Shown in pieces: positions 19,565 to 53,013 of a stretch of 64,000 nt of DNA (its first letter is position 1; every line of letters begins with the position of its first letter). The notes under the pieces were generated by a model, which was not told where the DNA came from, did not search any database, and saw only the letters and a list, made by a program, of their open reading frames with translations. The translations under genes and the position numbers were made by a program. The stretch comes from Nitrospirota bacterium (GTDB lineage: Bacteria > Nitrospirota > UBA9217). Where the stretch lies: the NCBI GenBank assembly GCA_963737155.1, contig CAVTRN010000002.1, positions 288,001 to 352,000 of the forward strand. Direction: 5' to 3'.

Positions 19565-19665
19565 GGAGGTCGCAACGAGACAGGAGATAATAGGTTACAG
19601 ACAAAAGCATTAGATGAATGAGGTTGAGGCTATGCGGTGATTATCGATAGCAGGAGGTAATTCCT

Positions 19666-19830
19666 ATGCCAGAGATACTAAGAAAAGTTAAATGACCTAA
19701 ATGTGGCTTTGTGGTGCAAAGCCATGATGAAAAGGAAATCGCAGAGATTATTATGCATCATGCTAAGAAATCGCACAATACAGATATAACTGAAATAGAG
19801 GTTAGAGAGAATATGAAAGATGTCGCGTAA
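19666..19830 (+). pseudogene. DUF1059 pseudogene, paralog of 35894-36058
   Basis: Shares CCTAAATGTGGCTTT and AAGCCATGATGAAAAGGAAATCG with 35894 gene; early stop/frameshift. Confidence 0.7.
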
Positions 19831-19904
19831 ACCACATGACAACTGAGACATGCCGTCTGAAGGGACGTGGTGATTCCATGCCCCTTTTTCATGAACGGGT
19901 CGTC

Positions 19905-19995
19905 TTTTTCCGCTAATTTCATCCTCAGCCTTCTTGGTGATGGATGCCGTTTCCGCCATCTTTACTACAAACTGTGCTTTTGTCATTACCATTGC
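19905..19995 (-). pseudogene. HU N-terminal fragment
   Basis: MVMTKAQFVVKMAETASITKKAEDEI aligns with HU at 36444; upstream promoter region also similar. Confidence 0.7.
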
Positions 19996-20128
19996 GATGA
20001 ATGCACTTCCTGTGATTGAAATCGTGTTGCAATGCACGCAAATGTAGACTATTGGAAGAATTATGACAAGGATTTTCAAGCAAGTAGCGGTTGGAGCATG
20101 TTTGAAGAAAACAGCTGCGCTACGAGGA

Positions 20129-36443: not shown

Positions 36444-36731
36444 ATGGCAAAGGCAATGACGAAATCCCAATTGATAGCAAAGGTAGCGGAGAAGGCATCA
36501 CTTACGAAGAAGGCAGCAGGTGAGATATTAGACTTCATCGCTGAAACAGCTTACAAAGAAGCTAAGAACTCGTTCACGATACCCGGACTCGGCAAGCTCG
36601 TTCTCGTTCAGCGCAAAGCTCGGATGGGAAGAAATCCTGCCACAGGCGAGACTATCAAGATAAAGGCAAAGAAGGTAGTCAAATTTCGAGTAGCCAAAGC
36701 CGCCAAGGATGCGATCCTCGGCACAAAGTAA
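36444..36731 (+). CDS. hup: HU-family DNA-binding protein
   Basis: MTKSQLI..., RKARMGRNPATGETIKI, VKFRVAK; RBS GGAGG; terminator 36759-36790. Confidence 0.95.
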   Translation: MAKAMTKSQLIAKVAEKASLTKKAAGEILDFIAETAYKEAKNSFTIPGLGKLVLVQRKARMGRNPATGETIKIKAKKVVKFRVAKAAKDAILGTK

Positions 36732-39257: not shown

Positions 39258-39350
39258 ACCGTTCCTGAAACCATGTATTTTATTTCCATATACTAGGACG
39301 GCAGCCGAACAGGGCTGCTGCCGGTTAACGTCAAGGCGCATGCCTCTGAT
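39258..39350 (-). ncRNA. Orphan TnpB omega-RNA/right-end scaffold copy
   Basis: Reverse complement matches 52445-52538 with 4 substitutions and 1 indel. Confidence 0.7.
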
Positions 39351-49019: not shown

Positions 49020-49340
49020 ATATGGCGGCATCGAAGATCGCTCTGAAAGAAGCGCAATTCTTCAGATGCGTTCCGATATAATGGCTGATCTCCGGAAACC
49101 GGTAGATGATAGCTGACAGTTGAAAGAACCTGCCCCTTGCCACGTGGGTTATACTTGGGAGTGAGAGTGCTCAAATACACAGCCACAACCAAGGGGGCAG
49201 GTAAGAATAATTGTGTCACATTCATCGGTCATGATGTCCACAAAGATTCCATAAAAACCGCGGTTGCAGACGGTTTCAGCAAGCAGGACGTTCCTCACCG
49301 CGGCACAATCGGTAGCAGCCTGGATTCGCTAGCACTTCGT
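49020..49340 (+). mobile_element. IS110-family remnant: non-coding leader plus transposase N-terminus
   Basis: FIGHDVHKDSI.TAVA (RuvC DEDD start); long stem 49128-49139/49190-49202 upstream. Confidence 0.6.
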
Positions 49341-50199: not shown

Positions 50200-50335
50200 C
50201 TAACCTGTCTCTCAACTCGAACCGAGAGAGCATGTACCGGATGCTTTCCAAAAAGGGAACTCCGAGATTAAAAGCATCTTTACCCTGCTGCACTCGCTGG
50301 GGATGAAACTGTATGTCGAGCCGAAGACTAGGTCG
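50200..50335 (+). pseudogene. Addiction-module antidote (HTH) C-terminal remnant
   Basis: RESMYRMLSKKGNSEIKSIFTLLHSLGMKL. Confidence 0.55.
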
Positions 50336-50772
50336 GCGAAGTCATCAAAGACCAAAAAGGCGGGATAAGATAAGCAAAGGGTGCGCTCGGATTCGTGAGT
50401 TAAAATATTCGGACGCGCCGATTTACGTGAGGCAACGACCAGACCACAGTTTGTAGCAAAAGATAGCGAAAAAGGCATAGATTACAAAGAAAGCCGCAGA
50501 TGATATCTTAGAATGCATCATAGAAGTAGCCTAACAAAGAAGACAAAACACTTTCACGTTGCCTGGACTTGGCAAACTCGTTCTCGCTCAGCGTAAGGCA
50601 CGTAGCGGCAGGAACCACGCAACAGGAGAGACTAATCAAATTAAGGCAAAGAAGGGTTCTCAACTGGTCAAGCTTTAATTGTATATTAGCAACTTTTATG
50701 ATATATTATATTCAATGGAATATATAAATAAGGGCTAAGCATCAGTAAACTAACAACTTGAGGCCGTAAAAA

Positions 50773-52464
50773 GTGTCAACTAGGAAAAGCACCAAAAATA
50801 AGAATGGTGGTGGAAAAGACACCCTGTCATTCACTGCAAATATGCTTCTGGATGATCACCCCTACCCGGAAATAAAGACCTCTCTTTATGCCATCCTCGA
50901 CGATACGGGCATCTTGTATGGCCGTATAAAGCGGACCCTGTTTAAAGACTGCATTCGCTCCGGCAAAAAAACAACAGAATTAAAGAACGAATACCTGTTA
51001 ACGTACAAGATCACTGCACGGCAGTACAATGCAGTCCGCTATGACCTGGACGGGAATATCAAGGCGGTAACGGAAATCAACAAGCTCAGAATCCTGGATC
51101 TTGAAGAGAAAATAATATCAGTAAAAAAGTGGATAGCAAACAATGAGTCAAGAATACTCAAAATAACGGATGATGTGAGTATCCCAAGCACTGAAAAAAA
51201 GATCCAGGCAAAGGAGCTTCAGTATCGTGTTGATAATAAGAAACGAAAGCTTGCTTCTTTGGAGCAAAAGCTTTCCAAGCTCAGGGAAGATCAGAAAAAC
51301 CGGCGGGTAAGGATTTGTTTCGGGTCAAACAAGATATTCAGAAAACAATTTTCCCTGGAGGAAAACGGGTACAAAAGCCACAATGAATGGCTCCTGGACT
51401 GGAAAAGGTCTCGCAATAACACTTTCTTTTGCCTTGGCTCGAAGGACGAATCGGGCGGGAACCAAACGTGCACCCTGAAGTCCGATGGGACGATGAGATT
51501 AAGGGTCCCTGATTGTATGAAGGACAAATACGGGCATTCCATTGTAATTCCCCGCATAAAATATCCCTATGGTCAGGAACATATCGAAACGGCCCTTCAG
51601 GCCGGAATAGCGATTTCTCACAGGTTTACCAGGGGCGAGAAGGGCTGGTACCTGCACACGACGGTAGATGTTCCAAAGGCAAAAACAGTTACTTACAAGC
51701 CAAAGGAAATCGGGTCTATCGGAGTGGACGTCAATGAAAAAGAAATCGCGGTTAGCGAGACCGACCGGTACGGGAATTATGTCAGGAGCATAACATATCC
51801 ATCCTGCGTTAAGGATTTGCGTACTGAACAGACAGAAGCAATGTATAGCGATATCTGCAAGTCCATCGTGGACCGGGCAGCCAAGACGAGAAAACCTATA
51901 TCCCACGAAGAACTCGATTTTAGCAAGAAGAAAGCTTCCTTAAAAGAGCAGGGCGTTACTTACGCAAGGATGCTTTCCGGTTTCGCCTACGGAACCTTCC
52001 TCACCCTGCTGGATAGAAGGGCGGCAAAACATGGCGTTTCCGTGCTCCCGGTCAACCCTGCTTTCACCACGACCATAGGGAAATTTAATTACGTGGACCG
52101 CTATGGTATTACGTCGCATGAAGCTGCGGCGCTGGCCATCGCGAGACGCTCTCAACATTTCAGTGAAAGGCCTGATTCCGCCAGAATCGCGCCTCCCGTA
52201 CCTGCAAGGAATCGGGGGGTGCATATCTGGAGCATTTGGAGAAGGCTGAAGACGAGACGGGCGGGCGGTAGCATTAGCCTGACCGGCTCAAGGCGGTCCT
52301 TACAGGACTCCTCAGGTTGCGCTGAACCACAAACGAAATTTACATCAACGAAGACAGCGCAATCCATGCGGCCACCTCTTGCTACAATAAAGAGTGTGCA
52401 CCGCCGCATGGGATCCCAATTCAAAAATCACGGGACTTGGGTGAATCAGAGGCATGCGCCCTGA
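50773..52464 (+). CDS. tnpB: Long TnpB-related RuvC protein (563 aa)
   Basis: RuvC-I IGVDVN, RuvC-II HEELDF, VNPAFTT, RuvC-III region SHEAAALAIARR; no C-terminal zinc finger. Confidence 0.85.
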   Translation: MSTRKSTKNKNGGGKDTLSFTANMLLDDHPYPEIKTSLYAILDDTGILYGRIKRTLFKDCIRSGKKTTELKNEYLLTYKITARQYNAVRYDLDGNIKAVTEINKLRILDLEEKIISVKKWIANNESRILKITDDVSIPSTEKKIQAKELQYRVDNKKRKLASLEQKLSKLREDQKNRRVRICFGSNKIFRKQFSLEENGYKSHNEWLLDWKRSRNNTFFCLGSKDESGGNQTCTLKSDGTMRLRVPDCMKDKYGHSIVIPRIKYPYGQEHIETALQAGIAISHRFTRGEKGWYLHTTVDVPKAKTVTYKPKEIGSIGVDVNEKEIAVSETDRYGNYVRSITYPSCVKDLRTEQTEAMYSDICKSIVDRAAKTRKPISHEELDFSKKKASLKEQGVTYARMLSGFAYGTFLTLLDRRAAKHGVSVLPVNPAFTTTIGKFNYVDRYGITSHEAAALAIARRSQHFSERPDSARIAPPVPARNRGVHIWSIWRRLKTRRAGGSISLTGSRRSLQDSSGCAEPQTKFTSTKTAQSMRPPLATIKSVHRRMGSQFKNHGTWVNQRHAP

Positions 52465-52538
52465 CGTTAACCGGCAGCAGCACTGTTCGGCTGCCGTCCT
52501 AGTATGTGGAAATAAAATACTATGGTTCCAGGAACGGT
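52445..52538 (+). ncRNA. Putative omega-RNA scaffold 3' part
   Basis: Overlaps tnpB stop and ends at the element boundary; hairpin CGGCAGC/GCTGCCG whose loop CTGTTC can pair with terminal GAACGG (pseudoknot). Confidence 0.65.
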
Positions 52539-52676
52539 GTCAAATTCGGAGTAGCAAAAGTCGTTAAACATGCAATTCTCCGCACAAAGAAGTAATCACC
52601 CCCCTTTGTTTTGTTATTCTAAGCCCATTCCCAATCGAGGGGGCGACCGTACTCGCGGCTAAATGGGGAAGGGCTC

Positions 52677-53013
52677 TCATAGTCTATCTGAAACGCCGCG
52701 GTGTCGCGTCCTGATTTTCGGCGAGCATTGGCGTCGCGCTTCGTTCAAACACAAGCATTTCTGGTACTGCAGCGGGCTCATGGCCGTTACCGCTCGGAAA
52801 TGATGGTGGAAGGTCGATGTACGCAGGTTATCCTGCGCTGCGAAGTAATCGATGCGCAACGGCTGTGTGAAGGTACTCTTCAACCAATCGATTGCCCGCG
52901 CTATCTGTTGACTCTGACTTCCCGCCGATGATCGGCGCAAGGACCGGGATATCCTTCGGGTCAGTAAGCAAGTCGATCAACCGTTGAACACTTGACACTT
53001 GCTCAATCCTCAA
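52677..53013 (-). pseudogene. AraC-family regulator remnant
   Basis: IARAIDWLK..STFHHHFRAVTAMSPLQYQK..L.EARR, frameshifted. Confidence 0.75.

Follow-up and report, generated by a model that had tools for sequence, protein, structure and literature searches.

The 64,000-nucleotide (nt) stretch of a Nitrospirota bacterium genome analysed here (contig CAVTRN010000002.1, positions 288,001 to 352,000; hereafter, the window) very probably contains a transposase-less element of the IS607 family, inserted at a GGT in a decayed paralogue of the HU gene. This element would encode a TnpB with a D-E-H active site and an omega RNA whose guide is taken from the flank, and the likeness of this guide to intact HU genes would be passive. 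When one copy of the GGT is counted, the element spans 1,881 bp (50658-52538, forward strand) and contains only a tnpB-like gene and its end sequences. The features on which the analysis is based are listed below by window position.

36444-36731, forward strand: intact HU gene, 95 amino acids (PF00216, 85.6 bits).
50430-50657, forward strand: 5′ part of the decayed HU paralogue, matching intact HU at 36451-36675, plus junction bases.
50654-50657, forward strand: left junction motif GGGT, whose last three bases (GGT) recur at the right end.
50654-50772, forward strand: non-coding left end, with subterminal AT-rich motifs common to the left end of an autonomous sister family.
50658-52538, forward strand: non-autonomous IS607-family element, recognized by its six copies, its sharp boundaries and a sister family with a serine TnpA.
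50773-52464, forward strand: tnpB-like open reading frame (ORF), 563 amino acids, with RuvC-I D319, RuvC-II E379, His449 at the RuvC-III position and no zinc finger.
52300-52538, forward strand: conserved structured RNA (omega or right-end scaffold), supported by covariation, with its 3′ limit at the element boundary.
52539-52560, forward strand: putative guide of ~16-22 nt at the start of the right flank, consisting of HU-pseudogene sequence; suggested by TnpB biology and by the sharp fall of conservation at 52538.
52539-52595, forward strand: 3′ part of the HU pseudogene, through its stop codon, aligned without gaps to intact HU at 36678-36728.

Boundaries of the element were defined by comparison with its other copies in the same genome. 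A search with window positions 50600-52600 against the genome (4.84 Mb, two contigs) yielded 45 matches: six close copies at 96-100% identity, including the window's own, 14 rows at 65-71% identity that correspond to 13 copies of a related family, and 25 shorter fragments. On the right side, the five other close copies ceased to align at 52538. On the left side, GGGT followed by common element sequence began at 50654 in four of the six close copies. Left ends found by pattern (n = 14) all had GGT and a purine at position -5, and 13 had G at position -4; the left end of an additional close copy (C2:1168991), which was not among these 14, agreed with the junction motif. Sequences outside the boundaries were unrelated between copies, each copy having a different flank. 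Open frames of 564-568 amino acids were present in five of the six close copies, and the window's copy was 99-100% identical to another copy in the genome.

GGT was present at both junctions and no target duplication was observed. An earlier reading of this DNA, made from its letters alone (the sequence-only reading), had described a TnpB-like element whose removal would rejoin an HU reading frame, and this description was correct: excision of 50658-52538 restores the local HU frame with one GGT retained. The left HU piece closes on a whole codon at 50657, that frame runs on through the right piece, from 52539 to a stop codon at 52593-52595, and the two pieces are colinear with intact HU. The same reading had reported no terminal inverted repeats, and none were found when the left end was compared with the reverse-complemented right end (best local score 8, compared with a mean of 7.0 for 500 shuffles, 31% of which scored equally well or better). 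By analogy with IS607 elements, the GGGT at the left junction likely comprises both the GG crossover core and the target-adjacent motif (TAM), for which RGGGT is our candidate.

The predicted protein belongs to the TnpB family, in agreement with the sequence-only reading; it showed a weak partial profile match, RuvC residues and a fold related to Cas12f, TnpB and Fanzor2. Among 8,000 candidates scored, 353 proteins were homologous at E ≤ 0.001, and their source names were "IS605 OrfB" or "TnpB-related protein". D319 and E379 were invariant among 24 aligned homologues. The third position of the RuvC triad, which is Asp in the canonical D-E-D form, was occupied by His449 in this protein and by His in at least 90% of the homologues. 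The absence of a zinc finger was deduced from the segment of ~70 residues between E379 and H449, which has no cysteine; in addition, no CxxC motif occurred in this segment of the 24-row alignment. An AlphaFold2 model had a mean predicted local distance difference test (pLDDT) score of 79.3, with residues 497-563 below 50. The best folds identified by Foldseek were Cas12f (E 3.7e-8), Cas12k/m, ISFba1 TnpB, Fanzor2 and ISDra2 TnpB; TM-scores across these multi-domain chains were low (0.3-0.4), and the overall arrangement of WED/REC and a split RuvC was recovered. The last ~67 residues are unstructured, and their coding stretch overlaps the RNA region.

A TnpB clade with these properties is known. 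The sections of Altae-Tran et al. 2023 (PMC10691335) that deal with the major clade RIIIr-4 describe a His in place of the RuvC-III Asp and a missing C4 zinc finger, and its authors inferred that the clade is catalytically active. The window TnpB has both hallmarks and would fit this clade as judged from these two features rather than from a tree. The same two features, the His at RuvC-III and the missing zinc finger, could also imply a nuclease-dead, RNA-guided DNA-binding factor of TldR-like or Cas12k-like type instead of a homing nuclease, and no activity test of the His-variant clade was found in the literature searched, in which two papers name RIIIr-4. We consider this alternative improbable, as the invariant D319 and E379 together with the conserved His argue that the active site is retained, which is also what the cited authors inferred for the clade. 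The genomic setting is different as well. TldR also combines a TnpB-derived protein with a guide RNA, and such a pair could in principle bind a host gene. However, TldR genes occur as single, immobile copies whose products have no nuclease activity, and their guides are conserved to match a promoter of the host, whereas the window gene keeps its catalytic D319 and E379 and resides in multi-copy mobile elements with varying flanks, with no fixed host locus that carries a conserved guide. The window element thus falls outside the TldR pattern.

Assignment to the IS607 family came from a sister family in the same genome, whose proteins are 57-58% identical to that of the window and which is represented by nine 587-amino-acid frames, one of them holding a TAG. 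The sister TnpB gene is located directly downstream of a 188-amino-acid IS607-family transposase (NF033518, 190.2 bits, cut-off 110), and 13 of the 16 resolvase-domain matches in the genome were directly beside a sister TnpB-like gene. This transposase, a serine-recombinase TnpA with a MerR-like helix-turn-helix and a resolvase domain, was absent from the window copy and present in sister copies; the window element is therefore a non-autonomous IS607 derivative. Both families start with GGGT and end in ...GGAACGGT (...ACGGT), an ending observed in 17 of 19 long copies and in 23 of all 32 right ends listed. The last 70 nt are identical at 61 positions between the families, and across the first ~75 nt of the left ends 53 of 82 aligned columns are the same. 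Beyond this genome, relatives were encoded by 501 of 581 candidate stretches, the nearest of them in Nitrospirota metagenome-assembled genomes (MAGs), and a TnpA(Ser)-like gene occurred just upstream in 61 of the 80 loci kept from other genomes. The sequence-only reading had suggested an IS607-type lineage with a G-rich core and a search for its serine TnpA in the genome; both the core, as GGT at the two junctions, and the enzyme are present.

These properties can be compared with those of characterized IS607 elements. According to the parts of PMC10711439 that concern mechanism, crossover takes place between GG dinucleotides at both ends and in the target, the right-end RNA runs past the element boundary, and the TAM of ISXfa1 is GGG. 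Like the ISXfa1-type elements covered there, the lineage described here has a serine TnpA directly upstream of tnpB in its autonomous sister copies, one G-rich core common to the two junctions without target duplication or inverted repeats, a structured right-end RNA that abuts the boundary, and a G-rich left junction comparable to the GGG TAM. Unlike them, the window copy has lost tnpA, its RNA has no Rfam match, its TAM and RNA are predicted from sequence, and its TnpB (~560 amino acids) is distinguished by a long helical insertion, the RuvC-III His and the lack of a zinc finger.

A tnpB-only element of IS200/IS605 type, inserted 3′ of GGGT through single-strand "peel and paste" and mobilized by a Y1 TnpA of this genome, would also display a left-flank tetranucleotide, no target duplication and no inverted repeats, and the genome contains 22 Y1_Tnp matches. 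This origin is nevertheless very unlikely, since the sister family with the same ends has an IS607 serine transposase and not Y1, the serine TnpA is also found upstream in 61 of 80 relatives, and GGT at both junctions fits crossover at a common core. No Y1 (HUH) TnpA was met in autonomous members of the lineage, in which the adjoining transposase is a serine recombinase, and Y1 TnpA was accordingly judged an unlikely mobilizing enzyme.

Additional traces of TnpB-type elements were detected in this genome. A solo right end of the window element's family is located at window positions 39258-39350 (reverse strand, 93 nt); it is 95% identical to the final portion of the RNA region, finishes in GGAACGGT, followed by unrelated sequence, and is 2.5 kb away from the intact HU gene. 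More solo right ends, 60-110 nt in length, are spread across the genome. About ten of the Y1 (IS200/IS605) transposase matches are intact 147-amino-acid frames (e.g., G000:C1:884139-884504), and together with the IS607 copies they constitute a heavy load of TnpB-type elements.

At its right end, the element encodes a predicted structured RNA no shorter than 240 nt. The last ~240 nt were conserved between the two families and in Nitrospirota relatives, far beyond the conservation of the protein; for example, a 24-nt hairpin was identical in relatives L041-L046, except for a single base in L044, with proteins 55-62% identical to that of the window. RNAalifold analysis predicted 55 pairs, of which 19 had compensatory changes. 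Paired cells amounted to 93.7%, compared to 34-40% when partners were slid by 1-3 columns, and two-sided pair changes numbered 19 versus 1-3 in these slid controls. None of 500 shuffles gave a covariation score as high as that observed, and the single-sequence fold had a z-score of -2.59. Conservation stopped exactly at 52538. With the conserved RNA structure reaching as far as the right boundary and no further, the adjoining HU-derived flank is plausibly the guide, by analogy with known TnpB systems. In one relative, a Nitrospirota MAG (region L042:4238), a tandem duplication of the 7 nt that precede the terminal GGAACGGT represents a small length variant at the junction of scaffold and guide.

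The sequence split by the element had been taken for an HU gene. It is indeed HU-like, but it is a pseudogene: in the HU frame it contains three stop codons, its left piece (171/228 identical to intact HU, 75%) requires five 1-nt gaps, and a start in register is absent. The right piece is 40/51 (78%) identical. With its in-frame stops and indels, the interrupted copy is not an intact PF00216 ORF such as that at 36444-36731, and tblastn with HU as query matched it with an internal stop included. Of this HU type, the genome contains five intact genes and five fragments, the interrupted copy being counted among the fragments; two distant HU/IHF-like genes are present as well. Homology among the HU paralogues is limited to the gene and ~80 bp on either side. 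Since a near-identical copy of the element resides in a heavily decayed HU remnant, its insertion was most likely a recent event that hit old debris, a timing that gene conversion among insertion sequence copies could blur.

The 22 nt that follow the right end match intact HU (36678-36699) at 19 positions, with mismatches only at positions 9, 10 and 18 and the first eight positions perfect, and the upstream contexts of the right flank and of intact HU differ; on these points the sequence-only reading was accurate. What did not hold was a match beyond paralogy. The other four intact HU paralogues match the same 22-mer at 18, 19, 18 and 15 of 22 positions. Under a binomial model, 19 or more matches among 22 would arise with a probability of 0.18 for an identity of 75.6% and of 0.27 for 78.4%; given this background identity, the near-match is what paralogy predicts. 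All five intact paralogues have a mismatch at position 10, and two of them also at position 9. In all five, AAGGT is followed by A, T or C and then by the matching 22-mer, so the GGGT junction motif is absent in register from each of them. The first 12, 16 or 20 nt of the putative guide have no second perfect match in the genome. Of the 32 right ends in the genome, just one is located at HU-like sequence; the solo end near the intact HU gene comes next in proximity. On these comparisons, the resemblance between guide and HU is a passive by-product of insertion into a paralogue and not a targeting relationship.

The proposal that a ribonucleoprotein (RNP) with an HU-derived guide binds or represses intact paralogues of HU or mobile elements that carry HU, or homes into them, with the intact copy spared by TAM and guide mismatches, is extremely unlikely: the flank does match five intact paralogues at 15-19 of 22 positions, and the portions of 10.1101/2023.03.14.532601 on off-target binding by IS605-system TnpB report that it is mostly TAM-dependent and tolerant of guide mismatches, yet the similarity equals background paralogue identity, every intact paralogue lacks the in-register GGGT and is mismatched at position 10, the host HU was already a pseudogene whereas the element is 99-100% identical to another copy, and only one of 32 right ends is at HU. 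The idea that a common mobile unit carries the HU genes was rejected, because homology among the paralogues does not extend beyond the gene and its immediate surroundings. The right flank remains plausible as a guide, and its HU-directed meaning is unsupported. We attach equally little credence to a milder version, in which the RNP of this copy docks weakly on the five intact HU paralogues and modulates nucleoid-protein expression, as an accidental first step toward a TldR-like regulator.

We therefore return to the insertion of a tnpA-less IS607-family element at the GGT of an already decayed HU paralogue as the preferred explanation. The element would encode the D-E-H, zinc-finger-less TnpB and the right-end RNA, and this RNA would reach the boundary and continue into the flank, where, as in characterized TnpB systems, the first ~16-20 nt may act as guide. 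After excision, such a guide would send TnpB to the vacated site, composed of RGGGT and the flank, and thereby favour retention of the element. The serine TnpA encoded by the sister copies of this genome would probably mobilize the element in trans. The proposed role is similar to that of TnpB in IS200/IS605 homing (ISDra2 and Geobacillus ISGst), for which the relevant sections of 10.1101/2023.03.14.532601 identify the right flank as guide and the left-junction motif as TAM: in both cases the vacated donor site would be re-cut so that the element is copied back. Differences are that the recombinase is a serine enzyme here and a Y1 HUH enzyme there, and that the junction bases in the present lineage are common to both ends.

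Several observations weigh against this explanation. The TnpB profile matches are weak: NF040570 was matched only over residues 361-447, with E 4.6e-12 and 45.9 bits where the cut-off is 100, PF07282 gave 15.7 bits against a cut-off of 26.3, and TIGR01766 and Cas12f2 were below cut-off too. With matches below NCBIfam and Pfam cut-offs and covering ~90 residues, the TnpB assignment depends on fold, motifs and context. Nuclease activity of the D-E-H protein is an assumption, and expression of the RNA and its 3′ extension into the flank are predictions. An Rfam scan of 50400-52700 at E ≤ 1 gave no family match, and the RNA alignment comprised seven sequences from about three to four lineages. Finally, no orthologous empty site was found in 30 relatives when the left flank and the upstream gene were used as query, so the exact pre-insertion sequence is deduced from a paralogue only. 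In the closest genome the upstream gene is kept (87% identity) and synteny is lost before the HU pseudogene; other HU-like matches were at paralogue level (73-79%). Contigs assembled from four soil-metagenome DNA runs and compared with 50200-52800 covered the element, not the HU flanks, and none spanned the element.

Other HU fragments and repeats were noted in the window. A further HU fragment of 28 amino acids (57% identity) is located at ~19915-19998 (reverse strand), and the adjoining region, ~19653-19886, is 73% identical to the region upstream of intact HU. A repeat of ~124 nt at 49106-49223 recurs at least eight times elsewhere in the genome, with about 78% identity. To the right of the HU remnant, an 87-amino-acid ORF at 52677-52940 (reverse strand) resembles, by eye, the C-terminal helix-turn-helix of an AraC-type regulator, and the neighbourhood may be generally decayed.

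The window element is a non-autonomous member of the IS607-family TnpB elements, its His-variant TnpB clade has already been described, and its HU aspect is ordinary. Similarity between guide and HU is of the kind that arises whenever an insertion hits one member of a gene family, and has no significance as a finding about HU. The lineage itself looks recently active, with six copies at 96-100% identity and about a dozen autonomous sisters. An IS607 lineage with a His-variant, zinc-finger-less TnpB, sharp ends, a candidate TAM (RGGGT) and a covariation-supported scaffold is of modest value, and it is a natural system well suited to testing whether RNA-guided DNA cleavage is supported by a D-E-H RuvC site.

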